Source of the DNA: Psammoneis japonica
Taxonomy: Eukaryota
Length of the DNA: 64,000 nucleotides
Assembly (NCBI GenBank): GCA_008632985.1
Contig: QPGO01000008.1
Coordinates: 724,979-788,978, forward strand
Reading direction: 5' to 3'
The notes under the pieces are model-generated. The model worked only from the letters and a program-made list of their open reading frames with translations, had not been told where the DNA came from and ran no database searches. This document shows, piece by piece, positions 1 through 36,830 of this stretch. The first letter of the stretch is position 1. The number at the start of each line of letters is the position of its first letter. Made by a program: the position numbers and the translations under genes.

Positions 1-290
1 AGGATGAGAACCCATCAAGCAAGGGCACAGATTCCCAAGATGGGCCACGTGCGAACGAGCACGCTCCCCACTGCTCTGCGCGCGAAACACGATTGAGGTG
101 TCAAAAGGACCGGTTCGGACACCGGTTCTCATATTTTTCACGGAAGGAACTCTTTTTTCTCGATCCTCTTCCAACCAAAACGCCCCGATGCAAACATCGG
201 TCCCGGCGAACTTCCGTCAACATTGTCGTCATTAATTCATTCGTGCTGACTTCACAATGTTCCAAAAATATCCAAGAGAACGAAAACGAC

Positions 291-1227
291 ATGAAATCTG
301 TCCACGGTGGTACAAAGAATCCTTCACTTGTCAAGTCGCGGTTGGCAGGCGCAAACGCAGCATTTGCCAACCTCGCGATCTTGTTTTTCATTCTGGTCGT
401 GGCAGGAAATGAGTTTCGGTGGCTTTCTCGCGAGACAAGCCTACAATTCTGGACCGTTCTGCCTCTCATATTGCTCAAAATATGGATGTGCCATTGGCGA
501 CAATGGGACTGGTTTCTATGGTTGAAGCTCTTTTCCGTAATACCCTGTGCCGTTGTTGCTATCGACTTGTCTCGATTTGGAGACTGGGACCAGCAAATCA
601 TGCAGGTTGAATGGTTCACACTCCTTTCAATCAACATAATGGAGGCAGTCATCAAGGACCTTTGCTCGGACAATGCCAGAAGCATCTGGAGTCCAATGAA
701 TGCGTTTGTTGGAATTTTTCTGATACTCACAGAACTCTCAAGTCTACACACTATCCGCATCAGTGAGAACGAAACTCACGACTTTCTTTGGACTTTCGGA
801 ATTCCTTGGATACTTGGTAAGAGAACGAGGCGTATTGTTTTCAATCGGTGACATTCAGTACGTGCTTGCTGAACCATACCTTACTCCGCTCGCGACTCCG
901 TGAACAGCTTACACCATCTGGAACTGGACTCTAGTCTATAACAACTACCCTTACGCCATCGGGCGCCATACAGCGCTGTTGCTCGCACCGGTCGTTTTAA
1001 GTCTGAATCATGGATGGGACGTGTGGTTTGAAACAAGGGTGTACACGTTAGCATTTTACGCCTTGCTTCGGAGTACATTCTACTATCGCTTTCGCCAGCT
1101 GATGGACGTGTCTGACCCTTTCCCATCTAGGCAGAGCAAACGCAATATCCAAGCCCTCGTCTTTTGTTGCAATTTGATTTTGTTGAGCGCTCTAATCGTC
1201 ACGAAAGGTTGGCAGTATCGTAGCTAA
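291..1227 (+). CDS. Multi-pass membrane protein, DUF5692-like; 2 exons (291-816, 908-1227)
   Basis: GTAAG...CAG intron 817-907 joins the two ORFs in frame to give WILAYTIWNWTLVY. NIMEA and WFETRVYTL motifs resemble DUF5692. Hydrophobic segments. Confidence 0.7.
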
Positions 1228-1699
1228 TCTGTTTCTGATGGCGACAATTCCTTTGATCAAATGCTGAACGGATCCTCGTTTCAAGCATGGGAGTTAAAGA
1301 ACCCAATGTTAGGATAGTAAAGGACCCAGAATGCAATGTTGCTTCATGCTGCAGCCTCGTCTATCAGTGTTAACTAATTAAAGTATAGGTGTGCACGACC
1401 AAAATAGCAAGCGTCGTTTAGCGTTGTGAAGCTCCCGGCGTTGAACTTCCATGCCGGTCGATGGCTGCCAACCCTTGGTAACCACGGGAGAGTTTGAGGA
1501 CAAAACAACTTTGGAAAAGGTGGCACCTTGACTTTCTTGAACTCTTCATCACGGTGAAGCAGCCAACTAGATTGTTGGTCCTGGGCCACTCGATCTTTGA
1601 TTCTCTTCCAAAAAAAAAGGGTGTCAATCATGTCTTGCAGTCTTTGTTTGTCACTGTGCTTGCCAGCAGTTAGTTTTACATGAAAAATTGACTGACAAA

Positions 1700-2962
1700 A
1701 CCTGCAAAACACTGAACCTCAGGAGATTGTCTCAATTTGCTGAGGTGGCCAGATGATCACAAACACCATCAGCTGACTGTCAGCCAATTGCTGTCAACTC
1801 TCTCTCTCAGGTCCTGCAAGTGCCACATGCAACACTGTCAGATGACAACAGCCACACCACTCCTCCATCTTCCATGCCACTCACCCAAAGTGCAAAACAC
1901 AACAGCCACAGGTCTGAACTTGTGAGCATTTGCAAAGTGCAGTGAACAAACACAATTCTGATAAAATGTCCGCACCGCAACAAACCTGTGTCAAGATTCC
2001 TGGTGCACAAGACAATCCCTTCAATGCCAGATTTCGTTTTTGAGACAACAGCACCAGCCTGGCAGGGCTGGAGGGGAGCAGGCATTGCCATTTCTTGATC
2101 TGACACAACTTGATGAGCCACATGCCTGTTGCTGCTTGACAAGATGCCACCACAGGTCAGTTTCATCCCAGAAGATGCAATTGTCTCTTTTTGTGGTAAA
2201 TTCCTTGTGTGTGAGTGGCAGTGGTGCCAAATTGTTGATGACCCTTTGGGGAGTGCTGCAAGACAAGCCATCAAAGCACTCCTCAACACCACAGCAAAGA
2301 GCTGCAAGAGAACTGTTGCAAGGATCCCTTGACAAGCTGTCAGAGGCAGAGCCAGAACATGGGAAAAGAGCTGGCAAAATGCAGCCACTTTTGGAGCCGG
2401 TTGACGAGTGCAACAAACCCTCTCACAAAAACTTCTGAGATAAAATTCATTTGAAAAGGGAATGAAGCACCACAAAAAACCCTCAAATCCAAACTTGTGA
2501 GCTGTTGAGCATTTTTCAGTGGTTGCAAGGAGATCACTCATGATTCCTTCATCAGAACCAGTGGACCACAAAATGCAAACATCTGGGTTGCTGGCATGCC
2601 CAAAGTCAACTGGCGGCTTCAACCTGGGGAAAATTTGTTTGTGCAAAACAGTTTGCTGGCTCAATTGGCCACTGCAAGAATGAGGACATCAATTGTGTGC
2701 TGGAGTCCATTGACAAGAGCTTTCTTTTCATGGGTGATGAGAAATTGCTGGTCCAAATTGTGGTGCAAAACCTGGCCAATCAACTTTGCTTTGCACTCAG
2801 CTCACCTTGCATCATGAGTCATCAACAACATTGTGAACATTCTCCTGTCAATGGAAAATCAACAGGAGTGCTTTGAAGTGACACCAGAGCCCATTTTTGG
2901 GACATCTGACAGCAGTGTGATCAGGACAAGATGTGACACATTGCCAGGAAACTAAGTTTGGG
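1700..2962. mobile_element. Unclassified, highly degenerate transposon relic (left part of the sequence hit by the Gypsy insertion)
   Basis: TpA- and CpG-depleted. Only Tyr-free Cys/His-rich fragmentary ORFs. Lies directly outside the Gypsy 5' LTR. Confidence 0.45.
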
Positions 2963-2966
2963 TCAG

Positions 2967-3466
2967 GTGCAGCATGCAATGCTGACTGCTGGCAGATGCT
3001 GCATCCCCCATGACATCAAATTTTCAAAGTGAAGCCAGAGTCCAGGGGAAGTGCACACTGCAATTGCCCACACAAGCTTGCACTCACTCCAGTGAGTGGG
3101 AGCATTGGCACAATTGATGGTGTCAATTGTGAGTGATCCATGCAGAGAGGTTGTGCAGCAACTGACCATCAATGTGATGCCTTGGATGCATGAAGACTGT
3201 GTGTGTGAGGCATGTGCTGTGCAGTGCTCATCAAGTCCCAAGCTGAAATTGAAGCAATGCTTTTCATTCATGGATGAACACACTCACACATTTGCATGAA
3301 GAAGTGAGTGTGCAGCTTCCAAATGACCAAAGACATTTCTTGGCCAAATGAGCCAACTCAGAAACATTCTCACAGTTCTTGCAGTCAGCTCTGCAACCCA
3401 TCAACCCACACCCAATTTCAACCACCTGCTTGACACATGAGGCACAGTGTGACATTGCTCCAGCAC
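2967..3466 (+). repeat. Gypsy 5' LTR (approximate)
   Basis: Aligns along its length with 14308-14802, e.g. ATGCCTTGGATGCATGAAGACTG in both. Confidence 0.75.
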
Positions 3467-6400
3467 AAGTGTGTGTCAAGAAAATTTCTTGTGAGACAAC
3501 ACATGCCCCCAATGACAACACATGGTTGTTCAGACACAACCAGCCCTGTGATCACAAAAAAGAGGGTTGTTCCTCCTGTTCCCCTGCAGGAGCATCCTCC
3601 AAAGAAAGAGCTGACTAAAGGCAAGCACCAAAGGCACGAGCTGCACAACATGCCCAATCACAAAAACTGAAAACTGTCCAGTGTGCAAGTTGAGCATGCC
3701 ATGCTTCAGAACTGGAATGTGCAAAGAGTGGTTGCTCCATGCCGCCCACAACTCCAAGCAAAGTCATTCTTGGAAAAACATCATGACCAGGCTGGAAAAG
3801 TGCTTGTTGGCTCACATGCTCTCAGAGGGCAATGCTGTCACAATGTTCAACAACAAAGCATTCAAATGCACACTGCTGAAACAAGTGCCAATTGTGCTGA
3901 GTGCATGATGAAGGCAGTCACAGCAAGCATCTTCCCCATGTGATGACGGCGGCACTTCTTCAAAAATGTTGCTCAAGGTGTTTTGTGCAAAAGCCTCCAA
4001 GATGAAGATTCTGCACTGTGTCATGAGTCATGAGGGCAGCTGAGATCAATGGCTGCTCAAAGGATTTCCCTCCTGTTGCAGAAGGCAGGGATGATCTGAC
4101 ATTGTTGCCAGGTGATGAGCTTGTTGATTTGTTTGAGTGTGGAGTTTTCCAAGTGCATGGCAAAAGCACATGGTCCTGCTCCGTAACTTTGATCCACACT
4201 TGCTCTCACACACTTGCAGAGCTCATTTCATTTTGCAAACAGAATGAGCAAGTTGAAGCCACTGAAGGCAGATTTCTAAAGATGGCTTCTTCTTCAAAAA
4301 CCAATGTGCCAAAAAAGAAAGAAGTGGGGCAAAGGCAAGGATGACCCAGAGCTGCTTGTTGTGGGTCACAAGTGCAGCTCAAAATCATGCCCATTGCACA
4401 GCAAGAATTGTGGCCATTCAACAAATGATTGTCAATCTTTGCAGCATCAAGTCAAATGCACAAAGACTTCACATCCATCTGGGGCCAAAAAGAAAAACAA
4501 TCAAGAGGAGCTGAGTGCCATCATCAACCAGGCAGAGCTGAGAGAAAACACACAAAAGCCCAAGCACACCAAGATTCAAGACAAAAAAATCAAATCAATT
4601 CAAGCCACTGTTGCTTTTGAAGATTCTGATGATGAAGACAAAGGGCACCATGTGGTCTGAGAAGGAGGCCAGCACAACACCTCCAAAAGTTTGGCAGTTG
4701 TTTGAACAAATGTCTTGACACTGCACTTCAATTCCCTGGAAGTCATGCTGCAGGCCAACCCAGAAAATGGCAAAAACTCAAACAGCACATTGTGCCAACA
4801 TTGTTTGCTGCCTTGAAAACCAGCTGCACATGACAAAGGCAACAAAAGTTCAAAAAAGAATTGCTTGACAGTGGAGTGAGTGGCATGCCAGTTGATGCTC
4901 GCCACTGTGCAAAACTCCAACAGAGAAGTTCAGCCTCATTGAAAGCTGGAAAACTGTTGCAGGAGCACTCAAGACCAACCAATGTTGTCTTGTTTGCTTG
5001 GGTGAGCTTCCAGAGATGTCTGAGATGGCTGCTGTTGAATCCAAAGTCCATGCGGACAGGGGCAAATTGGGTGTTTGTGCGACACAAAAGTTGGCCAAGA
5101 CACCCTGGAAAATCTGGGCATTGATCTGGCATTTTTTCATCAGACCACATTGAATGGCCTCAAGCAAATGGGGAGATTCCATCACAACACCCAGATGTTG
5201 CATCCAATGACTCTTTTTGTGCAAGGAATCAACACTGTCAAACAGTGACAGTGAGAGAATCTTGGCCACTGAAAGTTTTGGCAACTTCAACAGGAAAAAC
5301 TGCTTTAGACTCTAAAAGAATGTGAGTTGTTGTTTGATGGCACACCGGGCAAGTGGAAAAGTGATCCTTGCCACATCCAGTCAAGTGCCAAACCACACTG
5401 TGCAAGACTGCAAAAAGTGCTGCACTTCTGCAAGCAGGTGCTGAAAGAAGATGAGGTGAAGCACCCTCCATGCAAGATCAGCACATTGAAGAGGGCAAGC
5501 TGCTCAGAGCAGGTGACACCATTGTTTGTTGTCCCAAAAAAGATCAAACAGCGCAGCTTGTCAACAACTTTTGTGAGCCAACAAACAAGAGAACAAAGCA
5601 GATCCCTTGCCCCTCCCACACATTCAGAGCTGCTCTTGAAACTTGAGGGTTTTCAGTGGAAAATGTTGCTTGATCTGAGTGCTGGCTGCCACCACATGAA
5701 GCATGGCACAGCATTTTGAAAGCTTTGCTCCTCAATTTTTCCATGGGAAAAATGTGAAATGCGGCAATGCCTGCCAACACATTTTTCAAGAGAAAATGTC
5801 TGTTTTTTTTTAGGATTTGTCATTTGTGCACATGTGCATGGATGACCTGCCAGTCATCACAAAAACACATTGGATGATGACCATCCCAAGAAGAAGTTGC
5901 GCACTGTGCTCAAGAGTCTAAAGGATGCTGGACTTGGAGTCAATGCCTCAAAGTGGTTGCCATTCTCTCAAGTGCACTCTCAGAGCATCTCTCAGAAATG
6001 AGGTCACTGGTGAAAACATTTCACCCTTGAGGAAAAAGGTTGAGAGGCCACAGAGCACATTGCCAAGCCAAAGACCAAGAAAAACTTTTGTCATTTGTTG
6101 GCATGGTGAACTGCCACTGCCAAGATCCATGGTTGCACACAGATCAGATGTTTCAGCGGCCCTTGCAAGACTTGCAGCAGGCAGGACCTCCAAGCGGGAG
6201 CAAACTTCCATTGAAAAGAAAGCACTCCAAACCATCAATCAAGTGATGTCAAAGGACACACTTCTTGTGCATCTTCATTTTGACAAGCTGTTCAAACTCA
6301 TGCTGATGCATCCAAATGTCAACTTGGAGAGCAGTGACATCTCAAGACAGCAAACCCACTGCACTTGCCTTTGCAGCAGGAAGCTTGACAATCCTCAACC

Positions 6401-6836
6401 AAAATTTTGCACAGCAATGAAACAAGAGTTGCCTGCGGCCATCAAGACTCTGAAAGAGCTCAGCAGGTCTGCTCTCCTTGGTCATTGCATTGTTGCATCT
6501 CTGATGGTCATAAAAACCTTGTGCACAAAGCACTCAACACCAAATGTGTCCATGTCAAAAGCTGCCACAATTTGGTTGCAGACCATTTCAGTGATCTCTC
6601 AACCTTGAACCTGTGTGGTCCAATGATTGCCAAAACATCCAAAGTGTGTGTCCTCTGCATGAGGAGGCCTTCATGAACAAAAGCAAAGGTGATCATGATG
6701 GATCCTGCTGGTTTCAAGAAAATCCAACACAAACAGCAGAAGGATGAGCACCTGTCTCAATGCTGGCATTTTGCACAGCTGCTCCATGCACTCAATTTGT
6801 GAGGGAGAAACATCTGACAGACAGTTGATTTGTTGT

Positions 6837-7081
6837 TGACAGAAAATGAAGATGACTGGGTGGAAGAAAACAATGACTCCTTGCTGCTGTCTAAATGGCA
6901 GATGAGTCTCCATGCAGAGACCGTTGCAGGAGTCAAAAGACTGGTGTCGTGATGTCGACACTGCTGTTGTTGTTCTTGTGAGCCAAGTGGCTCGAAAGCA
7001 AACTGCATCGCGCGATGTGCGCGGAACTAAGAGCACACACAATCATGTGTGACAAACTAAAATCTTGCTCAAATCCTGTCA
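6837..7081 (-). repeat. Copia-1 3' LTR (245 bp)
   Basis: Matches 11507-11755 with 23 substitutions and one 4-bp indel. Confidence 0.95.
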
Positions 7082-8217
7082 CTCCCCAGTTTGCTTGAGG
7101 GGTCAACAATGACAGATTCGAAGTCGGATTGGTTGAAAGCCTCGGGATCGAAGTTCCAAAACATTAGAGGACAAAGGAGGTTCCAGATTTGGCAGCAACC
7201 CCAATGCTTGCTGAGGATGTCAGCCGGGTTGCGGGAGCCTTCGACAAAATGAAACTCAAGGAAACTGGAGGCAATCACCTCACGCACACGATGGAACGAG
7301 AGGGCGGTGTGTCGCTTGTGTAACTTGGAGTGCGGGATGGCAGCACTGTCCACAACCGACTTGTTGTTTTCCAGGAAGATCATCATTCGCAGGCCACAGA
7401 GAGACACTGCTCCGGAACAGACACTGTCAACGGGCATGTCTGTGAGGTGTCCATCGGCAACAAGCCTTGCTTTGTGCCATCCGTCATGTTTGATTCGGAC
7501 GTGATCTCCCCATTCTCCCATTCAAGCATGATGTTGCAGCTTGAGCCTTTCCAAGAGGGATCATGGGGTGGCAATGGTCCTTCGTGCGATGCGGTGCATC
7601 GGAACTTCCAGAGGGTGGTGTCCTCGTCTTCTTGCTCAATGTGGTGCATGATGTCATTGCAGGCCAGGACTTCCTCATGTTTGTCATTGTTGATGGAGCA
7701 AATGAACTTGACCAGTTCAGGATTGTCTCCAATTTTCCAGTCATGGTCCTCAACGACTTTGATGATGCGGGCTCTGTGGCATTGTCCATCCTCTTGTGGC
7801 TTCATGAGGAAGGTGCATCCTGTGATGTCCTCGGGGTCAAAGACCAGCATTTTGGGCATCCTGATTGCCTCCCCATCTGGTGAAGCTGGCAAATCCTTGG
7901 AGTTGTGGTGGGATTTAATGACAGGTTCAGCAGATTTCTTGTCAGGAGGATCAAGATGCAGGTTTGGAGCAGACGGATCACGGGCGGAGTGCACATTGGA
8001 ATGGCAGAGAATCTTCTGAGTGTTGTCAGAAAGAATCTTGAATGTCATTTGGTGACCAACGTGCTTGGCGATGTGCGGGAGGCCGGCTTTAATGTCGATG
8101 GGAATGACGCATCCATCAACAGTGGTGATGCGCTGCAGACCGTTGGGGACCTTGATGGACCGATCGTTGACATTGTGTTTGTGCACCACTTGAGCTGGCC
8201 GCAAGAGTGTGTCATCT

Positions 8218-8548
8218 CAATGGGAATCATTTGGGTCCTGAGAGTCATCACGTAGAAATTGTGCAGGAGAGTCCAAAAAACAATTGTCATCAGTCTGTCC
8301 ATCCGTCCGTGTGCGAATGTCAACTTCTCGGGAAATCAATTGAAATGCCATCTGATTGACGGCATTTTGATTCACATGGTGAAGGCCAATGCCATCAATC
8401 AGATGGCATTTCAATTCAGTTCCCGAAAAGTCATTGGCTCTGATCACTCTCTCGCATGACATTGTGCACATTTCCACATGATTTTGTGTTTTTCCTTGTG
8501 TGAAAGATCAATTGTGACCCACGCGACATTTTCGAATGATTCCTGTTG
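8218..8548. mobile_element. MITE-like insertion in Copia-1 pol, with an internal long hairpin
   Basis: Interrupts the ILHQ-A-TGKG / THSCGQL motif. 16-bp terminal inverted repeats (CAATGGGAATCATTTG vs CAACAGGAATCATTCG). 43-bp inverted arms at 8324-8366 and 8388-8430. TSD not resolved. Confidence 0.65.
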
Positions 8549-10133
8549 CCCCTTTCCAGTGCAGGCTCACTGGTGAAGGATGGCAATGGCAGGGCCGCGT
8601 TGTGTGTGGATGACACCACCGGCAGTGACAATGGGAATGTCTGCTGGTTGATGATCATTGACACCTTGGACGTCAACGTCATTGGGCTTTGCGTCGGAGC
8701 GGACGGAAGGTGCAGATCCGGGCGGTTTCTCACCAGAACGGGCAGAAGGAGGCTGTTCAGGTGCCAGGAGATGTTGCAAGTCGCCGGGTGGCAGGGGCTT
8801 GTGCCTGGTGAGATGAGCCAGAATGGGGTCAGCATCGGCTGCATCAGCTGCAGCGTCGGATTGTGCGAAGGCTGATGCAAGATCGCAAGTGTTGGCGGAC
8901 AAGTTGACACTGCATCACTGCCAATGTGGAGGTTGTGCAGGTTGACCACCGTCAAGTCATGGCAGTTGCCGGTGTGGGCGGTGTGCGAGCCAAGAATGGC
9001 AGCCTTGGTGGACTGGGGCAAGGTGTCCCAAATGCGCTGATGGTCCGGCGGGATGCGACGCCATTGTTCCTTGGTGAGGGAATTGCCACGAGTTTGTGCA
9101 GCACAAGCTTGGATGATGTCAACATCACTGTCGATGTCAAAGAACACATCGTCATCAGGGTCGTCGGGGACTGGGTCGTGTTCACAGATGGCACGGCACG
9201 GAGCGCGAGGAGCCATCTTGGGGGCGAACGTGCTGTCGTGCTGTGCTGCAGCAGAAAGCAGGAGTCCACAGTGCTCTTCGTAAGAGAGCCCCTTTCCATT
9301 CTGCGTGCAGAACTGATCGGCCTGATTCTTCATGGAACGGAGTTCTTCGATGGGATGAATGGCATTCTCAAGCATGACACATTTCTGGCCAGCAGAGAAA
9401 TGGTCCGCACCCGGGACAAGAGCTTCGTGCTTGCGAAGCTGGTCCTGCCAGTGAAGTGTGAAGGCATGAGTGGATCCTTTTCAGGTGCCACTGCCAAGGC
9501 GAGCAGTGGTGAGGTACGTGAGAAGGGTTGAGGACTCCAGGGATGCGTGAGTGGAAGTGAGGGTGCACTTGGAGAGGTCACAACAGACCACTTGAGCATC
9601 AGAGGAGCCAACATGTTGATGAACAAGTGCCTTGCCTTTGTCATTCTGCAAGATCCGTTCAAACACTGCGAACATGCACTTCTGTTGTTCATCAAACAGG
9701 GCCTTGTCCTCAGCTGCAGAGGGCTTGTACGTCGGGTTGAGAGTGCATGCGATGTCTTGGGAGTGGGCCTGTGCGATGACGGAGGTGTGCCATGTGTGCC
9801 ACTGTTTGTCGGACTTGAGGAGCGCGAAGGCAAGTGGGTCACGTTTGATGCCTCGTTTAAAGTCACACACAGGATCATGTGGTTTGGGTGGCAACAAGCC
9901 AGGAGTGGGAGCAGATGGTGCTGCACCCATGGAGAAGGACGCCACACACTCAGGACTGAGATGACAGTTGGTGAACTCCTCTTGTGTGAACAATTGAGGG
10001 TCATTGCCAACATCCGCGCCGCCGTGCGCTTTTGCCGCATGCAGGCTAATCAACGCAGCCATCTGTGCTTTGTGACCATGTGGCAAAGGCATTTGATTGG
10101 TGCCGTCATTGTGTGCAAGGGCATCCAATTGCA

Positions 10134-10532
10134 GACACGTTCCAGCTCTAGGTGGGACCTCGCACTGCTGCACTGTGACATCAATGGTTTTTTGGATCGC
10201 GTCGCATGTCGCACACGTGCATTTCTGTGTGTCACATTCTACGAAATTGTTTCACATTTTCCCTGTTTTGCGAAGCCAAAGGCTTTCTATTTTCAACAGT
10301 TGTGAGAATGAAAATGCATTGGGTGCATTCTTTAATGTCTGTAGAATGCACCTGGGCAAACTGTCATTGATGCACTCCAAGCATGAAGGAGGAGACACGT
10401 TCGTAAAATTGCCTCTTTTTCTGTTGGCGATCATTCACATTTTCATTGCAGTGTGAAATTACTGCAGAGCTCACACGCAGAATTCTGCGGGCCCAATGTC
10501 ACACGGAGTCCCACCTGGGGCTGGAACCTGTC
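10134..10532. mobile_element. MITE inserted in Copia-1 gag
   Basis: 25-bp TIRs (GACACGTTCCAGCTCTAGGTGGGAC vs GACAGGTTCCAGCCCCAGGTGGGAC) flanked by TGCA on both sides. Removing 403 bp puts gag ORFs 10499-10681 and 9481-10173 in one frame. Confidence 0.85.
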
Positions 10533-10744
10533 TGCATCGGAGCAAAAGTGAAAAGGTCCTGATGCAAATCGGTTCCATCAATGTTGAGGGCGGAGCGCAA
10601 TGGACTGTCTGCGGCTTGATTCAGAACAGTGCCTGGAATGTGCTCGAGGCCATCAATTTGCTGTTGCCTGGTGAGAGCCATGTTGCAACTGGGTGGATGT
10701 CGGAACTGGCAAGAATCAAAGTGTGGGCTTGAAATGACTTGAAA

Positions 10745-10787
10745 CTTGACTTGAATCTTGACTTGAATCTTGACTTGATGTCTTGAA
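10745..10787. repeat. Short tandem repeat (CTTGACTTGAAT x~3.5) in the Copia-1 leader
   Basis: Seen directly; 12-bp period. Confidence 0.8.
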
Positions 10788-11506
10788 CCATCTCAAGAGT
10801 CAGAAGCCGCCGGGCTGTGATGTCCCGTTCGCAGTTAAGTGCCAAGCTTCCCATCCAGTCTGCAGAGTTGTGCCGGCATGTCCGAACTCACAGCTGGCGA
10901 TGCTTTGGGTTGCTTGAGAGCAGAGTGACGGGTTAAAAACCCCTGCTGACAAGCCATCCAGAGGTGGACAAGACCTCCGAACCGTTCTTGTTTTATGTTG
11001 GTTGGACAACCTGATCAGGCCGGCCAAATTTGGCGCTGTGGATGGACGAACAAACGTGGGAAATGCACCCTCGCCCCAATGCAGGCTGCAATCACAAACT
11101 GCTTCCTCTCACAGTTGTCCTCGTGGACCTTGTGGGACTGTAGAAGACCAGCAATCTGGTGCAGATGCAAGGCGGTAGACTTGGCGTGCGTGGAGCAGAG
11201 CCAGACTCAGGGGTTTGTGTCGTGTGCACGTGGACGCAAGCGGATGGATTGGCAGGATCCACTGTGAGGAATCCAGAATCTCGGATGTCTGAGAATTTGG
11301 GAATTCCTGGCCAAACAAACATCCGTTGAACAAACACATCCAACGATGGGAGGCATTGGATAAATCCAAACATGTAGATTTAATCCAGCACCCAGCAGTG
11401 AAGAAGGCAGATGTGTGCTTCCACCACCAATGGTGCACGTTGTCGAAAAATTTCTCGATGACGATGATGAACGCTCAATGGATGATGAAGAGCAAGGCTG
11501 TCAATC

Positions 11507-11755
11507 TGACAGAAAATGAAGATGACTGGGTGGAAGAAAACAACAACTCCTTGCTGCTGTCTGAATGGCAGATGAGTCTCCGTGCAGAGACTGTTGCAGG
11601 AGCTGAAAGACTGGTGTCGTGACGTCGGCACTGCTGTTGTTGTTCTTGTGAGCTGAGTGGCTCAAAAGCAAACTACATCGCGCGCACGACGTGCGTGGAA
11701 CTGAGGGCACACACAATTGTGTGTGATGAACTAAAATCTTGTTCAAATCCTGTCA
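11507..11755 (-). repeat. Copia-1 5' LTR (249 bp)
   Basis: Matches 6837-7081. Flanked by the TSD GTTGT. Confidence 0.95.
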
Positions 11756-13053
11756 GTTGTCAGGACAAAATTTGCACCCCCCAGAGTCATTGCAGAGAAG
11801 CAGCTGACTGAGTGGCACCATGTGCAGCTGCATCATCCAGGAGAGACACATGCAGGCCAGAAAGTGCTGCTGCCCAGCATTTTCTTCACTGGAGAGACAC
11901 AGCAGCACAAACTGCATGCTCCAAATTTCAGCTTGGTTTTGCCATGAGATCCCCTGAAATTTCTCAGGATTGCTGGGCAGTGGTCACAAATGCTGCTTTG
12001 TCATGTGTGCACTGCAGACATGAATGTAAACTCACACGTTGGGAATTCTCCATGCTTCCCCTTGCACAATTTGCCACTCAATGGACTCACACACCAAAAC
12101 CGTGTGACACCACAGCAGACAACACAAGCCAGAGTTCACTCAATGATGTGTCAACTTCTGTCAGCATGCTTCAGCTCACATTGTGTGTTTCATGCATTGC
12201 CATGCTTTGAAAGTCATGCTGCACTGTAAAAAAGCAAGTTGTTCTTGTGCATGATTTTTCCCTTTTTTTTAGATGCCACAACATCCCGTGCATCTGCTCT
12301 CCTCCTAGATCACCATGGGGCCACATGAAAGTTCATAAGATGTGACATGATTTTCATTGCTGAGCCTCTGCAAGGTCCTCTCATCACAAAAGCATCAATT
12401 GCAGTGACTGCCAAGTGCTCGAGTGGGATGGCTGGCTGGGCTGGCAGGCAAAAGCACACCCACCCAAACACAATCACTGCACAATTGCCGCACAATTCGC
12501 TTTTTTTGTTCCCCTCCCCTGGGCCCTTTCAGGTGTTCAGTGCCACAAAACTGCTCTTGTTTCCTGGGTGTTCCCCCAAAAAGGCATGGCAGCTCCTCCT
12601 TGCCTTGGTCATTTGGGTGAGATGTCCCCCAAAGAGGCAAAACCAAGCTGAGCTCCAAACACGCGACTCATGTCAAAGGACAAAAAGGCGCAATCTCAGA
12701 TGTGGGGGCTGCAGTGCAAAGAAAAAAGCAGCAGAAATTGTCCCATGGGAAACCACAAAATTTGCACCCCAGAGTCATTGCAGAAGCAGCTGACTGAGTG
12801 GAGCCATGTGCAGTTGTGCAGTCCAGAAGAGACAAACAAAAAGAAGTTGCTGTTGTGCCCGGCATTTTGACAACTGGTGCAACATGACAGCCATGTTGAA
12901 TCATGTCACAGAAGGTTTAAAAAAAAAGACACAATCTCAGATGTGAGGAGCTTCCCCAAAAGAGGCAGAAAATTGTTCCATGGGAAACCCTTTGAGAGCA
13001 GGTGTGGTTGGAGAGAACACACAGTCAAGAAGTGCAAAAATGAGACGTCTCAG

Positions 13054-13500
13054 TGCAGTGTGCATGCAGACAAAAGGTTGTTTTTGTCACGCCCTTTGTG
13101 ACATTTAAAGGCTGCAACACGTCGCCGTGACACATTGGCTCTCATTGGCAGCTGTGTGTTGCACTCCTCCCCATGTGTCACGCGTCCACACGGCTCTTTG
13201 CTGACGTGTGCTGACACTGCACGGTTTTGGCAGAACAGTGTGGGTGCGTGCGAAGGAACACACAGAACTGCACAGAGTTTTGCGCGTTCGACAGTGATCA
13301 ACGTTGCTGCAGACAACTCCCACTCAGGGTTTCGAACCCCTGGCCTCCTGCCTGATGGTTGCGATGAACCACTCCACTGTGAATTCACAACGCAGCATGC
13401 ATGCAGACAAAAGGTTGTTTTTGTCACGCCCTTTGTGACATTTAAAGGCTGCAACACGTCGCCGTGACACATTGACTCTCATCAGTGGCTGCATGTTGCA
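13054..13500 (-). mobile_element. TRIM-like miniature LTR element (447 bp) with an internal tRNA-like segment
   Basis: Two 110-bp direct repeats (13054-13163, 13391-13500) around 227 bp. PPT CATGGGGAGGAG on the minus strand directly before TGCAAC. Internal A-box-like and B-box-like (GGTTCGAAACC) motifs. Confidence 0.75.
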
Positions 13501-14307
13501 CTTTGCACTTGCGGGCAGGCCAATGGCTGTGGTTGTCCCAGTGGCTGAACAGTTTGAAATTGCCCAACTGACTGCCAAACATGCCAGCATCACAGCCCAC
13601 ATCATCAAACAGACCCTTGGTCATTTTTTTTCACCACCAAGAATGGCGGGCACATGATGCACAAACCGGCAGCCACACCAACTCAACAAGCATGACTCAG
13701 CTTCAGTGCAAATTTGCCATTGGTGAGCTGCAGCCAAAAAACACCTCACCGTGGCAACTCCACTTCAACCAAGGAACTGAGTTCATGGCTGAATTTTCAG
13801 TCAACTGGCTCAAGAAGAGGGCTGTGGTCTCCGAAAGAAACCCACAAGCAAGCAAAATCTGTGGGTGAGCACCACAGTGGAGTGTGCAAATCAGATGATC
13901 AGGAACATGGTGTGGCCATTCTCAGTTCAACACATGTGCAAGCCTTGTGCAGCTGGCAAGGCATTTGACAGAGATGTGATGTCACACACCACACATTGAG
14001 CCACCCAAGTGGAAATCTGCATGGGACAGAAAGCAAAGAGAAGCTTCTTGTTCACACGACAAACAACAAAAAACAAAATGCCGCTGAGAGACAAAACTGC
14101 TGATGTGCTCTGCAGCACAATTGGCACTCATCAAACAAGAACAAAAATCATCATGTGCAGGCCCTGCCAGAGTCATGCAAGTCAATGACAATGGCGCGCT
14201 GCACACACAAGATGGTGTGCCAACAGACAGGTGCAATCCAAGGCACAGCAGGCTGCATTGGTGCATCAGACCATGCTGGTGCTTCATGATCCATGTGACA
14301 GGGGAGC

Positions 14308-14802
14308 ACGCAACATGTGATGCTGACTTCTGGCAGATGCCAGCCACATCTCATGATGCGGAACTTCCAAAGTAAAGCCAGAGTCCTGGAAGAAGTTTGC
14401 ACTGTGACATGCCTGTGTGAGCTTGCACTCATTTTAGCAAGTGGAAGAAATGCTGTGATTGATGGCATCAGCTGCAAGTGCACTGCACAGAGAGGTTGTG
14501 CAGTGACTGGCCATTGACGTCATGCCTTGGATGCATGAAGACTGCACATGCAAGGCATGTGCTGTGCAGCATTTGCCAAGCCCCAAGCTGAATGTGGTGG
14601 AGCAATGCTTTTGCCGCAGTTCACAGGTGAGCATGCTCATGCAGCTGCATGAAGCGAACATGGCTTCCATGCAACCAAAGATTTCTTGGCCAAATGAGCC
14701 AGCTCAGAAATGTTCTCACAATTGCAGTCAACCACAGTCTGTCAACCTGCCCAATTTCAACCATGTGCCCATTGCATGAGGCACAGGAGATTGCCCCAAC
14801 AC
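14308..14802 (+). repeat. Gypsy 3' LTR (approximate)
   Basis: Follows the integrase C-terminus (GPARVMQVNDNG) and the PPT. Aligns with 2967-3466. Confidence 0.75.
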
Positions 14803-14806
14803 TCAG

Positions 14807-16375
14807 CAAAGACCCAAGCTTGGGGGATGTGCTCCAGAAGCCAATGCAGAATCAAGCTGTCCCACTTTGCTCATCCAACTTGGTGTCACTTCAGCTGCAG
14901 TGAATGACCACCATGGCAAGGCCATTTTTTGAGTGACAGGCACCTTCTTTTGCACTCCATTTTGAAAACAGCTTTTGCAAAATGCCCTTGCTCAACCTTT
15001 CTTGGATGCTCCCTCTTTGGAAGAACTTCACAAGATCAGCACGCAAAAGGACAAAGAGTTTGTGGGATGGCTTTTTGCATCAGGCCTGCCCTCCTTGCCA
15101 ACCCATTGAGCAGAGTGGCAAAGTGAAACCACCATGTGCTGGAGCTGCAGTTTCAAGGGTTTCTGGTCGGGAAGTCAGCTGACTCTTGTTTGTGGTGTGA
15201 AGATGTGAAGATGACCAAAGAAGACACTCTTGGCTCTGGACAAAATGGTGTGAGGATTGATGGGCAGTTGAATGTTGTTCTGTTGCAGCTGAAGCATGGG
15301 GCGGTGCTGGGTGCTGGCAGGCCCAACAGCAGCAGAAAGAATGAACAAACATCACAAGCAATTTTCTGGCTGCATGGCTGACCTTTCAAGGCACAGAAGC
15401 ACGCACAAGATTTCACAGTGGAAGGGTTGTTGGCTTTGTTGTGGTCATGTGCAACAACAAGCAATCACCCCATGCAGAGGCATGCTGCCTTTCAGCACAG
15501 TTGACGAGGAGGGAGGGAGGACAACCAATGTGGTGTGGAGCCAGCATCAAAAAGAATTCAAGCAGTCTCATTTCAACAAACCTGACAGGTTGGACCACGC
15601 AGATGGATCAATCTGGCAAGTTGTGACTGGGTTTGGTTGGTGCACCTGTCAAGCCAACAAGAAGAAAACAAGAAGCACCAGAGCAAGAGGTGTGCTGTGG
15701 AGGCAAGACACATGTGCCAATTCTCATCATCATCCTTGGCATCACAAACATTGGCCAATTTCAGCCAGCTTGAGCTCTCAGGAGAGTGGGGTCATGGCTG
15801 AGCAATTGCCACCATTCCATGAAGGGGGGTCAAAATCTAGGCTGGCATGCACCCTCAGCCAGTTCTTGAACCACCTGGGGAGCAAGAGCCATCGCAAATG
15901 GCGGTTTGCCAAACTGCTGGCTCTGTGACAGAGCAACTGCTGGGCTGGTGGAGAGCTGTGGTGCACCATGACCACCCCCAGCACACATTGTTGTGTTGTT
16001 GAGAATTGTCCTGTTGTGCTGGATTTAAAATTCATGACCAGCCACAAACTCCAAATTGGCAACATCTTCCTCAACCCTCCAAGCACACAGCATGCTGTTT
16101 TCTCCCCACGGGCACGCACACTCACACACAACACAAGCAAAGACATTGAGCTGCAATGTTGTCACCAGAATGCACAGAACTGAAATTGACCAGCTTTGCC
16201 ACTCAATTCCAAGGAATGCTGTTGCCACCAATCATGTGCAAGAAATGACAACAAATGATGATGTTTCAGCCTCAGAAAACTCCAATCAACCAACTCACCC
16301 ACTGATCAACTTTTTGAAAAACACAAAACGCTGTGCGGCACCGCGCGGGCGCTGCCACAACTTGCCAAAATGTCT
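14807..16375. mobile_element. Unclassified degenerate transposon relic (right part of the sequence hit by the Gypsy insertion)
   Basis: Same TpA/CpG-depleted composition. No intact ORF. Ends abruptly at ~16375. Confidence 0.45.
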
Positions 16376-16644
16376 GTTAAAACGCACATCCAGTACTGTA
16401 TGTACGGTAACATAACAGCAGTTAGACTGACCTGACTGTCTGGAGAGATCTGGCTTGCGCGTATAATTCTTAATATATGTATATTTTTTATATAATACTC
16501 GGAGGTGGCGTTTATTATGTGTAATTAAAACACGAATAAATTAAAAATGCGACCGGCCAACTTGCTTTGTACCTCGCTCATTTTTTTTCACCGCTCTTTA
16601 TTTTCTCACAATCTCACAACTCACAAATCTTTCACCAAATTAAC

Positions 16645-17843
16645 ATGACAGCAGCCAGCAAGGGTCTAGCGGTGCCACGAGTCCGTTTATCCACCCGAAC
16701 GTCGAGCGCGGAAGTTGACAAGAAAAAGGAAATGCTTGAGGCGTCCAGTTCTGCAGGCACCGCGACCATGGTCGACGCAGAGCAGCACATTGAAAACTCC
16801 ACTGTTCGCTCTCCGACCTCCGTGCCAAAGAGCCGTGATGCGAACCTTAAAGATTTTGTAAGATTCATGGGAAATTCAACCTCCATTTCCCAGGTAACGA
16901 TCGAACAGATCGAACGAGTGAGGATGATGCACGATCGTTTCGCCGATGGGGCTAGGTTCTCCTTCAACTACAACGTTCTCCTCCTCGTGGCTTCCGTCAT
17001 TGCTGGCCTCGGCTTGGTGTCGAATTCTTCAACTATCATTATCGCTTCGATGCTTGTGTCACCAATTATGGGACCGGTTGTTGCGATGGCCTATTCAACA
17101 ACCATTCGAGACTGGAAGCTTCTTCGGAAAGCGCTGGTCACTGAGACGGTCTCATTAATATTTTGCATTCTCTCTGGTGTGGTCATCGCCGCAATATGTG
17201 GACAAACCAGTCTAGGGGATCAATGGCCGACGTCGGAAATGACCTCTCGTGGCACCTGGGAAAACTTTTTGGTTGGACTTCCTGTGGCTTTCTTTAGTGG
17301 CCTCGGAGTTGCTGTATCGCTCTTGGATGACCAGACCAGCTCCCTTGTCGGTGTGGCAATATCCGCTAGTCTATTGCCACCCGCCGTCAATGCGGGAGTG
17401 ATTTGGATTGCCTATGCCTATTTCCATTCTGGCACATTGGTTCCGGAAAATGTGGTCATGGACCCAGAACTCCTTGAAGAATTCCGATCAATGGGGGTGA
17501 TTAGTCTTTCGTTAACCTTGGCAAATATCGCATTGATTTGGGTTTCATCCATGTTCATGTTTCGTTTGAAGGAGGTAAGACTTGTAGATTGCGAAACTAT
17601 TCTATTTCTTACGAGGCAGGAATTCAATCCAACTTCGTGTCTTTCGTTGAAACATCATAGGTACTACCAATCGAGAAAAAGGTATTTTGGAATGACCTCG
17701 GCGTAGCTCGGAGAATATATCAGAAACGAGCTTTTGTTGAGCAGGTGGATGCCGTTCTGAGTGGTGACATCGATTCAATCAATGATCTAGACGACGAAGT
17801 TGAGGTCACTTTGCCTGATAAAGCGACCGACAGCACCGTGTAG
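16645..17843 (+). CDS. DUF389 family membrane protein; 2 exons (16645-17574, 17661-17843)
   Basis: Motifs IIASMLVSPIMGP and LVGVAISASLLPPAVN. GT-AG intron 17575-17660 gives an in-frame exon ending in TAG. Confidence 0.9.
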
Positions 17844-24093: not shown

Positions 24094-25803
24094 CTACGCC
24101 ATCATTTCCCGCGCAATATCAACAGCGTTCTTGCAACCATCATACACTCCAATCTTTGCGTTTTCCATGATTCGTTCATTCATGCTAACGATGAGCGGTG
24201 CATCAGGTTCGCGAAAGAGTTCCACGTATTGCAAAGCATCCTCTACTTCTCTGGCTTCCAAGGTCCCGTCTCCCAATTCTGACGCACGAAGCGCCGAGTA
24301 CGCCTCGTGGTCGCCCACGCGACGAATCATAAGTTTTGGAACGGGATAAAAGGCTAGTTCACTGGGCTTGCATGCCAAAATATCAGTGACACGGCACACA
24401 ATATCGGTTGTAGCCACCGCTGGGAAGTAGTCTTTGAAAGCAAAGAGAGTTACAGGCAAGTTGGGCTCTTTTCCCAGACGCAAGTTGTCGCAAAAGTCAT
24501 GGACGCCCTGGATGCTATCTACGACATCGTAACCAAGCCCAACTGAGTCAAGAGCTTTGATGAAGCCAACTCTCATGTGTTCATGGTCAGCAGCATTCAG
24601 GAACAGTTGCACCTCTCCCTCTTCGACCAGCGGTGCGAGTTCCTTAACCAGGTTTGTAACAAACTTGCGTTGCGCGCCGGCTCCTCCAACAGGAATCAAA
24701 AGACGCAGAGGTTTTCCTTTCTTGGCTCGTTCAATACGCGCGTTGCAATCATGTTCCACGTTGACCACCAAATCTCGCGGAATCCAGTGGCCTGCAAGCC
24801 GGATTTCATCTGCCGGGACACCCATTTTCAAAAGCTGGGCATAATTGGTCGGGCCCTGAACCAGGTTGAGTGCGCCGGGCACTACAATAAACCACTGCGC
24901 ATGGTTGTCAATAACGAGATTAATAACGTTCGTAAAGCCACAAGCCACCGCACACAAGCCCACTAAACAATGGGTAGCAATAATGGGCGTGTCCCGAGGC
25001 AATTCCATGAGGAGCGGTTTGGCCACTTCACCCATTTGATATGTCGCACGAAGTGAGTCAGCGTCACCACTTAGAGTGAGTGCACCCCAGAGTTTCTCAA
25101 TTGGCCCACCCAACTCAGAAGCCCAGCGTGATCCCTTGGAATATAATTTATCCATATCCTTGATAAGCTTAGCTTCGGGAGAATCAATGTTGAGAAAGTC
25201 ATGAAAGTATGTCTCAGAGCCCCTATCCAAACTCCAAGAACAAGCGGCGTAAGCAATACGATGATGGCCAAATCCCATACGAATAGTCCCTACTACGATT
25301 GGTTGCTTCTCCTTGACAGTTCCTCTCGTAGCTCTTCGAGTCGTCAACTTGTGAGGATACGAACCAACTTCACCCTGTTTGACGGTGACCTTGAGATTCT
25401 CCATAAAGGTGCTGTCTTGCTCGCCCAGCAAGACAGGTTCGGTGGAGGGCGTATGCCCGCCAGCGCTCATCCAGTTGGTAAACAAGAGCTTGACTCTGCT
25501 GCCAAACGAAGGTCCCTCCGGCTCCTGAACCCACTCGTCAACGTTCACCGCGTTGTTCTTTGTCAGCGACTGGAACGAACTGTTCACAAGGAGAACAGCC
25601 ACAGCTACCATCAAACCGATTATCGTAAAGATTAACGACAGTGGTATCAGGAAAGCTGAAAGCTCGACACCCTCCAAAACCTCGCTGGCATCGACATTTC
25701 GTACTCGGTCGACAAGCCATTCGGCATCCGACTTGAGTCCTTCGGTATCGCCACCGTACTTTCCAACTAGCACAGCGATAGCTAACGGAGCCACGCCTTT
25801 CAT
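24094..25803 (-). CDS. Membrane-anchored GT-B-fold glycosyltransferase-like protein (DUF6938-like)
   Basis: Intronless 569-aa ORF. IRMGFGHHR, IIATH, VGGAGAQ and KPSELAFYPVP motifs. N-terminal TM segment. Confidence 0.65.
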   Translation of the reverse strand: MKGVAPLAIAVLVGKYGGDTEGLKSDAEWLVDRVRNVDASEVLEGVELSAFLIPLSLIFTIIGLMVAVAVLLVNSSFQSLTKNNAVNVDEWVQEPEGPSFGSRVKLLFTNWMSAGGHTPSTEPVLLGEQDSTFMENLKVTVKQGEVGSYPHKLTTRRATRGTVKEKQPIVVGTIRMGFGHHRIAYAACSWSLDRGSETYFHDFLNIDSPEAKLIKDMDKLYSKGSRWASELGGPIEKLWGALTLSGDADSLRATYQMGEVAKPLLMELPRDTPIIATHCLVGLCAVACGFTNVINLVIDNHAQWFIVVPGALNLVQGPTNYAQLLKMGVPADEIRLAGHWIPRDLVVNVEHDCNARIERAKKGKPLRLLIPVGGAGAQRKFVTNLVKELAPLVEEGEVQLFLNAADHEHMRVGFIKALDSVGLGYDVVDSIQGVHDFCDNLRLGKEPNLPVTLFAFKDYFPAVATTDIVCRVTDILACKPSELAFYPVPKLMIRRVGDHEAYSALRASELGDGTLEAREVEDALQYVELFREPDAPLIVSMNERIMENAKIGVYDGCKNAVDIAREMMA

Positions 25804-27027
25804 GATTACCGATTATCTGTGTATCTACACTATCACCGCAAAAGCTACGGTCCTTGCTATTCGCTCTTCGACAGGTGTCAGTGGCGTTGCAGATTGCAGG
25901 TCGCAGGGTGCTATTGCTAGCTCTAGAGAAGTATCTTGCAGTAAGTGTGTCGAGTGTCGATGACGCAGATGCAACAAGAGGTGCTATGCAAAGCAAGATC
26001 GCGTGCGAGCGAGTGACGGACGGACTGCCCACGATCTCCCTTTCTATTCTATCTGCAAGTCGTCCGGATCGTTGTTGCCGTGGTGCTGCGGAGTTCATTC
26101 AGTCGCACTGGGTGCTGACTTTACGGCATGTGGGGCCCTGCTCTCTACCAGCTAGTGGCAGGAATTAAAACACTGTGGGTTCCCGTGACTGTTCCACATG
26201 AGAAATCCAGCATCCCCAACAAAATTGTTGTGGTGTTTTGTCGAAGTCAGCAGGCAAGGGTGTTGCCGACCAAGCCCCGCTCGAAAATCTCATTGCGACA
26301 AAACCAGCTGGCACACCTCTCACTCAATCTCTCTTGGCAATGATGTGCCAGAGACACATTGCATGACGCACACATGCCATTCTTGCCATGTCCGTGTCAG
26401 AAATGGGCCAAGGCAAGCATGCGTGCATCATTGCCAAAAGTCTGCAACACGCCGTTGTGCTGCTGGTGTGTCATCAAAACATCGGGCCAGTGGGAGAGAG
26501 CTCTGTTTCTCCCCCTGCTCATGCCAGCTGATGCACTCTCATTGCAGAGCTGACCTTGTCTGGGAGGCTTTCTGATCACAGACATCATCCAAAGAAAGAG
26601 CCTCATTGACTGAGATGTGTTTTTGAGCAGCACCCCCGTGCCTGCAAAGTCTTCCTCTCCATGGGCACCCCAAGCATGTCATGTCATTGCCAACCAAGCT
26701 CTAGACTCACCAGAGTTCAAAAAATCCAGTTCAACAAAACTCTGCTGGCTCTCTCTCTCTCTTCAATTGACTTTCCTTCTTGTGTCACTGTCTCTTCTTT
26801 GTGTGCACAAAAAAAGCAAGAGCAGTGTTGCTTTGCAAGGGTGGGAAGCAAGTTTCCATGCAGCCCCATTGTCTGTCCAACAATGCACAAGAAATCTTGT
26901 GCATGCTGCCTTGACCTTGTGATGGATTTCAAAGTGGAGGACACACATGTGCCGCTCCTCAATGGCCAACAGCGACCACGCAACAGGGCACCTCTAACAA
27001 CCAGACCTTTGCACACAGCTCCACAGT

Positions 27028-33000: not shown

Positions 33001-33044
33001 GAGCTCTTCAGCTTGTCACTCTCACCATCGGCATTCTTCTGTCA
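27028..33044 (+). mobile_element. Ty1/Copia (CoDi-like) LTR retrotransposon, degenerate
   Basis: LTRs 27028-27217 and 32847-33044. PPT AGGGGAGGG 32838-32846. TSD ACAGT/ACAGC. GAG-pre-integrase LWHQRLGHPS, RT ALQQGHPESG...QVDDF, RNase H FLDAAHGNDL...SS-VEFHAA. Confidence 0.92.
29695..29887 (+). repeat. 96-bp tandem duplication inside Copia-2
   Basis: TTTTGGACC...CATTGCC unit at 29695 and 29791. Confidence 0.9.
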
Positions 33045-33812
33045 ACAGCACCAACAGAGACCAAAGCTGACCCTTGTGCACAGCTCTGTGGCTCCAACAG
33101 AGACCAACACAGAAAATTGTGTGGTGGTTGGGCCTCTCCCCATCTCCTGCGGTGGTCAGCCAGCTGGTTCCCATGAGTCTTGTGATGGGTTCTTGGCCAG
33201 GAGACACAGAACAAGCAATGAGCAGCTCACAACTGCACCAAGCTCATTCTTGATTGTGAGCATTCTTTCATTGGCCTCACACATGAGCAATTGCCTTGTC
33301 ATCAAATTGGAGGATCTTGGTGCATTTGAGGCCACATTTTCGTCAAACACCACAAAGAGAAAAAAATGAGCACATGATGGTTCATGCAAGTGGTGGGTGC
33401 ATCGTTGTGCAGCAGGAATCTGCAACAAGACAAAGAGCAAGCATCCTTGACATGGGCACTGCATAATGACTCGAGCACTTCTTGGGTGCTTGGCTCATTG
33501 CAAGTCTTCCTTGGAGCGGCGCTCTCGAGCTGTGCCGTGAGTGACTACATCAGCATCGGTGTGACCGCTGATCTCATCATCGCAGGCAAATTTTCAAAAA
33601 TGCGTAGAACCCCACTGTACACTACACGGCGGATTCCTGATTCCAGTTTCACACCATGCAACAACAAGCAGTCTCAATGAGGCAACTCTCTCTAGCTAGC
33701 TAGAGGGTAATCACTACTAAAACGTTCAGAAACCAGAAGCACCCCCTAACCGAATAGACACTGCAGTCAGTTTTCAGTTTTACAAGAACAAATCAGAGGC
33801 ATCGCAGCAAGA

Positions 33813-36704: not shown

Positions 36705-36830
36705 CTCTCCCTGGGGAGACAATTTTGTGAAAGAGTCGTTGTTCCAGGGCCCATTGCAGCCAGAGCCTCTCCCTGGGGAGACAATTTTGTGAAAGAGTCA
36801 TTGTTCCAGGGCCCATTGCAGCCAGAGCCT
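36705..36830 (+). repeat. 62-bp tandem duplication
   Basis: Two copies differing by one CG/CA change. Confidence 0.9.

Follow-up and report, generated by a model that had tools for sequence, protein, structure and literature searches.

In the genome of the diatom Psammoneis japonica, a 64,000-nucleotide stretch of contig QPGO01000008.1 (positions 724,979 to 788,978, forward strand; hereafter the window, with positions counted from its first letter) carries a dead reverse transcriptase (RT) gene of a Ty3/Gypsy long terminal repeat (LTR) retrotransposon, which has very probably been rewritten by TA- and CG-specific transitions acting on the integrated DNA. Our comparisons show the pattern of these changes, their direction, their action on both strands, their timing after integration and their confinement. 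After integration, the old Gypsy DNA very probably underwent two dinucleotide-specific transition processes, each on both strands. One is the ordinary decay of methylated cytosine, from CpG to TpG/CpA, and the other, of a much rarer kind, converts TpA to TpG/CpA (A:T to G:C at TpA) and has gone nearly to completion. Because TA opens all Tyr codons and CG opens four of the six Arg codons, the two processes are read out in the protein as Tyr to Cys/His and Arg to His/Gln/Cys, accompanied by ATA-Ile to Met/Thr and CTA-Leu to Pro, the change of the catalytic YIDD motif to CMDD included.

A reading of the window made from the sequence alone (the sequence-only reading) had drawn attention to positions 5823-5864, which indeed read TTT GTG CAC ATG TGC ATG GAT GAC CTG CCA GTC ATC ACA AAA in the window DNA and translate in frame 0 to FVHMCMDDLPVITK, with CMDD at 5835-5846. 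Two further motifs lie nearby, GCHHM at 5684-5698 (frame 2) and MVNCH at 6103-6117 (frame 1). As the three are found in three different frames, there must be frameshifts between them, and the gene is broken. In a natural Ty3/Gypsy pol protein of 1004 aa, P0007, the corresponding motifs are GYYHI, YVRAYIDDLLVITK and MVNYY (in longer stretches, LDLNMGYYHIEL and YVRAYIDDLLVITKGDW), and a second protein, P0006, reads IGMVNYYRDAW. The ancestral motif FVRTYIDDLLVITK that had been predicted from the window is therefore present almost to the letter in relatives, as YVRAYIDDLLVITK of P0007.

Comparison with 120 natural Gypsy pol proteins, the listed relatives of P0007, revealed what stands at each of these columns. 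In GCHHM, the columns of C and H hold Tyr in 120 of 120 relatives, and the Met column holds Ile in 115 and Val in five. In MVNCH, the C column holds Tyr in 115 and Phe in five, and the H column Tyr in all 120. For FVHMCMDDLP around the catalytic site, the residues of the window and those of the relatives (counts of 120) are, in order:

F, V, H in the window: Y 69 and F 43; V 107; R 117
M, C, M in the window: A 78 and T 29; Y 120; I 114
D, D, L, P in the window: D 120; D 120; L 104; L 118

An ancestral GCG or ACG codon at the fourth column would in each case reach the ATG of the window via CG changes alone. GCHHM and MVNCH behave in the same way as YIDD to CMDD, as had been claimed, with Tyr or Ile of the relatives at the columns of C, H and M in the window. 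The objection that intact relatives might themselves carry C, H or M at these positions found nothing to sustain it among the 120 natural relatives. The observation behind the sequence-only reading is confirmed and its interpretation supported.

On sequence comparison, the stretch is an RT well beyond chance, and the Gypsy assignment, already made in the sequence-only reading, is sound; it is borne out by the profile alignment, by tblastn, by the domains of the relatives and by Ty3 as the best solved relative. In tblastn, P0007 matched the window at 5072-5953 (E=6e-19) and also matched integrase remnants at 12751-13862. P0007 has 3008 relatives at E≤1e-20, of which the 120 listed show a protease, RT, RNase H and integrase architecture (protease, RVT_1, RT_RNaseH, Integrase_H2C2 and rve domains), and its best solved relatives are Ty3 Gag-Pol (E=5.8e-87) and Ty3 RT (E=3.4e-73), with foamy-virus and caulimovirus enzymes ranking behind. 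A profile of the 120 proteins, aligned to the DNA in a frameshift-aware manner, matched window 5288-6550 over profile positions 134-548 with a score of 557, and still with 429 under a doubled frameshift penalty, compared to 30-43 for the controls (the reverse complement, the reversed sequence, 10 shuffles and five other TA/CG-poor stretches of the window). A phmmer search with 5922-6605 against 1.84 billion representatives gave 12 proteins at E≤1e-3 (best 6.9e-8), P0007 among them, 11 of which carry RT_RNaseH domains, seven also RVT_1, and some Integrase_H2C2 and rve.

The sequence as it stands is, however, too damaged for Pfam. None of the 111 stop-free plus-strand pieces of 1400-16200 matched RVT_1 at E≤0.01, and a scan of nine pieces at E≤10 gave a single relevant match, RT_RNaseH_2 on 5922-6605 (E=0.01; 16.3 bits against a cut-off of 29.8). 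Likewise, 5309-5716 had no match among solved structures by phmmer and none among the 182 candidates (longer lengths) of a word-indexed protein search. The alignment path through pol passes about 14 frame changes and three stops. The working catalytic YxDD is absent, with CMDD at 5835-5846 and Tyr in that column in 120 of 120 relatives, indicating a dead copy.

A column was taken as conserved when one residue is present in at least 80% of the 120 relatives. Of 269 such columns aligned to the window, 142 are identical and 127 are mismatched. The loss falls on particular residues. None of the 14 conserved Tyr columns is kept (five read Cys as TGY, five His as CAY, two Phe, one Trp as TGG and one Glu) compared to 142 of the 255 other conserved columns (Fisher p=1.8e-5), and the 403 aligned window codons contain no Tyr at all against 20 in the consensus. 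At the same 14 columns, Ty3 as read by eye has Tyr at seven, Phe at two, His at two and Cys at none. It is this conservation in the protein, with five TGY and five CAY codons in place of Tyr, that fixes the direction as TA to TG/CA, just as the sequence-only reading had argued. Arginine follows the CG rule: six of 19 conserved Arg columns are kept, five of them by AGR codons, which contain no CG, and 10 of the 13 lost ones now read CAN (His, Gln) or TGN (Cys). Conserved Ile is retained at four of 20 columns, and three of the six Ile-to-Val cases are preceded by T, which makes them TA steps across the codon border. The replacement types expected from the sequence-only reading, Y>C/H, I>M/T, L>P, V>A and R>H/C/Q, make up 32 of the 127 mismatches at conserved columns; R>W, also expected, is absent.

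We then scored single transitions as restoring, when they give the consensus residue, or damaging, when they spoil a matching one. In the TA class, 23 transitions are restoring and 51 damaging; the CG class has 20 and 48, and all other transitions together have 28 and 175 (p=2.4e-4). As an equivalent of reverting the sequence and scoring it, reversals were also evaluated codon by codon against the profile of the relatives, with no reverted sequence being built. With TA and CG reversals alone, at 532 candidate sites, the summed profile score rose from 832 to 1199 (0.69 per site); with all other transitions, at 677 sites, it rose from 832 to 1070 (0.35 per site). By context, the gain per site was 0.72 for TA, 0.62 for CG, 0.55 for AA, 0.27 for GA, 0.23 for CC and 0.21 for CT. 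With permuted columns the starting score collapses and the possible gains inflate; the classes were hence compared on the true alignment.

The RT belongs to an old Ty3/Gypsy LTR retrotransposon at 2969-14802, which is dead and interrupted by a younger LTR element (6837-11755). The parts, on the plus strand apart from the block itself, are as follows:

1560..16050, block in which TA and CG are nearly absent, with dense TA on either side (up to 1479 and from 16378 onward)
2969..3466 (+), 5' LTR of the old Gypsy element, a direct repeat of the 3' LTR, 70.7% identical over 515 columns
5072..5287 (+), leftover sequence ahead of the RT, comprising protease end and linker, to which P0007 aligns from residue 48 onward
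5288..6150 (+), dead RT with GCHHM, CMDD and MVNCH, several frameshifts and three stops
about 5528-6005 (+), part of the dead RT equivalent to Pfam RVT_1
6151..6550 (+), dead RNase H of the same pol (RT_RNaseH_2 at E=0.01, 12 relatives at E≤1e-3, profile alignment)
6837..11755 (+), younger LTR element nested between the RNase H and integrase parts of the old Gypsy pol
11768..13862 (+), old Gypsy integrase, of which remnants of the zinc-binding part and the core follow the nested insertion
14310..14802 (+), 3' LTR of the old Gypsy element, from self-comparison and alignment

The order of RT, RNase H and integrase between flanking LTRs is that of Ty3/Gypsy. The integrase remnants are matched in tblastn by P0004, P0005 and P0007 at 11768-11881, 12631-12834, 12924-12992 and 13749-13862. 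The nested element has LTRs at 6837-7081 and 11507-11755 (245-249 bases, 89% identical, with TG..CA ends) and a target-site duplication, GTTGT, at 6832-6836 and 11756-11760; no protein domains were found in 6837-11755 on either strand.

The RT lies in a 14.5-kb TA/CG-poor block, and 5000-6900 contains just six TA and nine CG. The window has three such blocks, at about 1560-16050, 26300-33500 and 35500-41000. Relative to expectation, the dinucleotides are represented as follows:

Three blocks pooled, nested element left out: TA 0.05, CG 0.13, TG 1.95, CA 1.81
Gene DNA between the blocks: TA 0.60, CG 1.01, TG 1.16, CA 1.10
Nested element: TA 0.10, CG 0.63, TG 1.59, CA 1.64

The remaining dinucleotides, AA, TT, GA and TC among them, are alike in blocks and gene DNA. 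The nested element, with TA at 0.10 but CG at 0.63, shows that TA loss is separate from CG loss and ran ahead of it. The block edges are sharp to within about 100-350 bases, and the block around the RT extends past the old Gypsy LTRs on both sides and across the nested element, which is of another family. The open reading frames (ORFs) between the blocks match ordinary eukaryotic families (Arf, Sir2, class I Glu/Gln tRNA synthetase, condensin II CAP-H2, XPA and CENP-S), and the best Atlas cluster of one between-block protein is all eukaryotic with Bacillariophyta as its commonest phylum. The process is confined to the transposon blocks, and the neighbouring genes are spared.

The two LTRs of one element are identical at integration, and their differences therefore record what happened afterwards. 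In the outer pair, 135 of 497 aligned columns are mismatched, and 68 of these form 34 adjacent CA/TG doublets, each of which arises because one ancestral TA (or CG) was changed on opposite strands in the two copies; about 63 of the 497 columns differ outside the TA/CG classes. In the inner pair, 28 of 254 columns are mismatched. Five CA/TG doublets, three TA/TG, four CG/TG and two CG/CA pairs cover 19 of the 28, leaving only nine of the 254 columns outside the TA/CG classes, and TA is retained in both copies (TA/TA) once, against three TA/TG and five CA/TG. By a rough hand estimate from these small counts, about 60-85% of TA sites changed per copy after insertion, and the TA rate, again from small numbers, would be about 50-100 times the background (about 1.8% change per site) and about 2-5 times the CG rate.

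The two strands of pol were hit to a similar extent, as the restoring TA-class changes comprise 12 T>C and 11 A>G on the sense strand and the restoring CG-class changes 12 G>A and eight C>T. No strand-coherent tracts of TG or CA were found by a runs test (z from -0.46 to 1.23 in five mutated parts and from -1.15 to -0.44 in three normal parts). Taken together, the LTR doublets and the equal strand hits indicate that the process acted on integrated double-stranded DNA, site by site, and exclude editing of the sense RNA before integration.

The sole public sequencing run that contains the stretch gave contigs covering 4752-6865 with no differences, in records of up to 315 kb and at a single-copy depth of about 60-100; no RNA run containing the stretch is listed. 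The RT region is single copy in the run at a likeness of at least 88%. Summed depths of 6,500-75,000, against about 60, place the nested element and 12923-13924 in very abundant families. Against other copies, 286 of 310 variant places are transitions, and 23 of the best-supported 40 of the 310 are TA/CG versus TG/CA differences. In the repeat at 13159-13384, other genomic copies read TA at seven places (13189-13282) where this copy has TG/CA.

Several other explanations were weighed against rewriting of the integrated DNA. ADAR enzymes prefer U before the edited A (10.64898/2026.01.13.699255) and could in principle have edited retrotransposon RNA in an A-to-I fashion with this 5'-U preference before reverse transcription, so that the element integrated already rewritten; retroelement RNA is, moreover, a natural source of double-stranded RNA. 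Editing of the sense RNA, however, predicts A>G on the sense strand only, where 12 T>C stand beside 11 A>G. The LTRs made from one cDNA would also match at integration, yet 34 CA/TG doublets separate them, and the TA-poor block exceeds the LTRs on both sides and crosses a nested element of another family. The strand symmetry and the post-integration doublets argue strongly against this explanation, which we consider very improbable. Much the same small chance is given to the view that no special process is needed, the element having decayed neutrally with CpG methylation decay and a genome-wide shortage of TA. The gene DNA in the window is already at a TA of 0.60 of expectation, the element is old, about 63 of the 497 columns of its outer LTR pair being mismatched outside the TA/CG classes, and CpG decay of methylated transposons is commonplace. 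Neutral decay would nevertheless have to produce a sharply bordered drop of TA to 0.05 with AA, TT and the rest of the dinucleotides at gene-DNA levels, a TA of 0.10 in a nested element whose LTRs differ at only nine of 254 columns outside the TA/CG classes, changes at roughly 60-85% of TA sites per copy (about 50-100 times background, a rough figure from small numbers) and a complete absence of Tyr from 403 aligned codons where the consensus has 20.

An assembly or base-calling artefact, by which modified transposon bases would be misread and TA and CG called as TG/CA, deserves mention since some long-read base callers are known to err systematically at methylated motifs and the only run that contains the stretch is probably the source sample. 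Such misreads would not yield opposite-strand doublets between LTRs, other copies of the 13159-13384 repeat read TA where this copy reads TG/CA, pol also has frameshifts, stops and many other replacements, and contigs from the run reproduce 4752-6865 without a difference. The same signature was measured as real mutations in another alga by an independent laboratory (10.64898/2026.01.13.699255), and an artefact is accordingly rated as extremely improbable. A chemical route is unlikely but has a better claim: a base modification on TpA, for example N6-methyladenine or a modified thymine such as 5-hydroxymethyluracil, might miscode or be misrepaired as 5-methylcytosine is at CpG. TA, like CG, is self-reverse-complementary, so a maintenance-type modification would explain the equal strand hits as well as a block-wise confinement parallel to CG loss. 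Its weak point is the nested element, where TA loss has far outpaced CG loss, so that no simple coupling holds between them. The adenine methylation known in eukaryotes is at ApT, not TpA.

For the rewriting of integrated DNA that we favour, the most likely agent would be an enzyme that deaminates adenine in DNA with a preference for a 5' T and is aimed at silenced or repeated DNA, like the one proposed for Bigelowiella natans. We put this forward tentatively, with chances slightly under even; both the enzyme and the targeting signal are postulated. At about the same strength, diatoms may possess a genome defence that changes A:T to G:C at TpA in integrated transposon DNA, by adenine deamination or otherwise, at roughly two orders of magnitude above background, and that thereby removes TA together with every Tyr codon.

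Several points weigh against this reading of the window. Much ordinary divergence overlies the rewriting in an old and divergent element, and TA/CG reversal explains only 47 of the 127 mismatches at conserved columns. The ancestral residues were deduced from relatives whose identity to the present window sequence is no more than 29-35%, and the 120 relatives of the profile, being 70-81% identical to each other, are one close family and not independent. Some of the His and Cys residues may be native, such as His at the second residue of GYYHI, given that Ty3, a distant and functional relative, has His there (read by eye). The single public run, probably from the source sample, offers no independent check on a base-calling artefact. 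In addition, A>G in the ApA context also looks restorative (12 restoring to 38 damaging). ApA as a second target was nonetheless rejected, since AA and TT are at 1.16 and 1.17 of expectation in the mutated DNA compared to 1.13 and 1.16 in gene DNA, and the raised AA gain is attributed to common natural replacements between Phe and Leu, Asn and Ser, and Ile and Val.

In literature searches on TpA depletion or hypermutation of retrotransposons, a preprint on Bigelowiella natans was the only work found to describe this signature (10.64898/2026.01.13.699255), and full-text searches, judged by title and abstract, found no description of a TpA-erasing signature in diatoms. In mutation-accumulation lines of that alga, two integrated viral regions acquire mutations at about 1000 times the rate of the remaining genome, and 230 of 231 de novo changes are A>G or T>C, all of those at TpA. 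Reverse-transcriptase and DDE-endonuclease (transposase-type) domains are over-represented among its TpA-poor coding sequences, and Mettrop et al. (bioRxiv 2026) suggest that a DNA adenine deaminase of the ADAT2 type is at work (10.64898/2026.01.13.699255). Of the features of that system, A:T to G:C changes confined to TpA, hits on both strands and confinement to foreign or repeat DNA were found here. Similar to the hypermutation of integrated DNA of nucleocytoplasmic large DNA viruses (NCLDV) and virophages, the changes run from TpA to TpG/CpA on either strand and are confined to foreign or repeat-like DNA, with the adjoining genome unaffected. Unlike B. natans, a chlorarachniophyte (Rhizaria), the host here is a diatom (Stramenopiles) and the targets are LTR retrotransposons; the erasure is near-complete (TA of 0.05, versus 0.45 for the NCLDV region of B. 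natans) and lies atop strong CpG loss; and the process is deduced from sequence comparison, where the B. natans one was measured in mutation-accumulation lines.

As in the repeat-induced point mutation (RIP) of Neurospora and other ascomycetes, dinucleotide-specific transitions inactivate transposons in integrated DNA and in sharply bounded blocks. RIP converts CpA to TpA, enriches TA and lowers G+C (10.64898/2026.01.13.699255). The direction here is the opposite, with TpA nearly absent, CpA nearly doubled and G+C not lowered, and fungal RIP, with its C to T at CpA and TpA excess, was rejected as an explanation. ADAR-type editing fixed by retrotransposition was rejected as well, given the equally hit strands and LTRs with opposite-strand doublets. 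The decay of 5-methylcytosine at CpG resembles what is seen in the CG of 0.13, the TG/CA excess, the conversion of CGN Arg codons to CAN/TGN and the survival of AGR Arg codons. It explains only half of the rewriting, however; the loss of TA and of Tyr codons goes beyond it, and the nested element lost TA but kept most of its CG. The element itself resembles Ty3/Gypsy (Metaviridae) in the order of RT, RNase H and integrase, in its flanking LTRs and in Ty3 being the best solved relative of its nearest natural proteins, and differs from a working one in that the copy is dead, with CMDD for YxDD, frame changes, stops and an element nested in pol.

Some further features of the window were recorded. 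The nested element is G-rich on the plus strand at 8501-10000, and its TG (566) exceeds its CA (426). The integrase remnant contains an 84-base direct repeat (11765-11848 and 12755-12834, 84.5% identical), both copies of which match the zinc-binding part of the relatives' integrases, indicating that this part is duplicated, and a short unit at 13055-13502, which retains many CG, has direct repeats of 111 bases at its ends (13055-13165 and 13392-13502, 92% identical). The block at 26300-33500 holds a dead Copia-type remnant with gag_pre-integrs at 30298-30582 (E=1.7e-7) and LTR-like direct repeats at 27030-27213 and 32849-33037 (77% identical); a family scan of 121 further pieces, from the minus strand of the first block and both strands of the other two, gave nothing except one gag_pre-integrs match. 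The block at 35500-41000 has no domain match. Within it, 40185-40370 resembles both old Gypsy LTRs in reverse orientation (71-75% identical) and is perhaps a solo LTR, and 36705-36830 is a short tandem duplication. Outside the blocks, 24097-25812 (minus strand) is an intact ORF of 572 aa with DUF6937 and DUF6938 domains, a family whose Atlas clusters are mostly bacterial with one eukaryotic and diatom-rich, pointing to a possible old gene transfer.

A practical consequence concerns annotation. As the stops TAA and TAG vanish with TA, the mutated blocks fill with long false ORFs in all six frames, and positions 1-17000 contain 76 stop-to-stop ORFs of at least 90 aa. These false ORFs in TA-free blocks would mislead gene callers and, together with transposon domains that fall under family-scan thresholds, bias both repeat and gene annotation of such genomes.

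The wider interest of this dead RT is that protein conservation fixes the direction of an unusual TA to TG/CA process, which is local, hits both DNA strands after integration and kills transposons. Should an enzyme drive the process, that enzyme would be a natural editor of adenine in DNA, strictly selective for TpA, and there would be a second lineage in which mutation serves to defend the genome, in the direction opposite to RIP. If the rhizarian Bigelowiella shares the system, its origin as a defence would be old within the SAR (Stramenopiles, Alveolata and Rhizaria) supergroup, and its effects would mirror those of fungal RIP.

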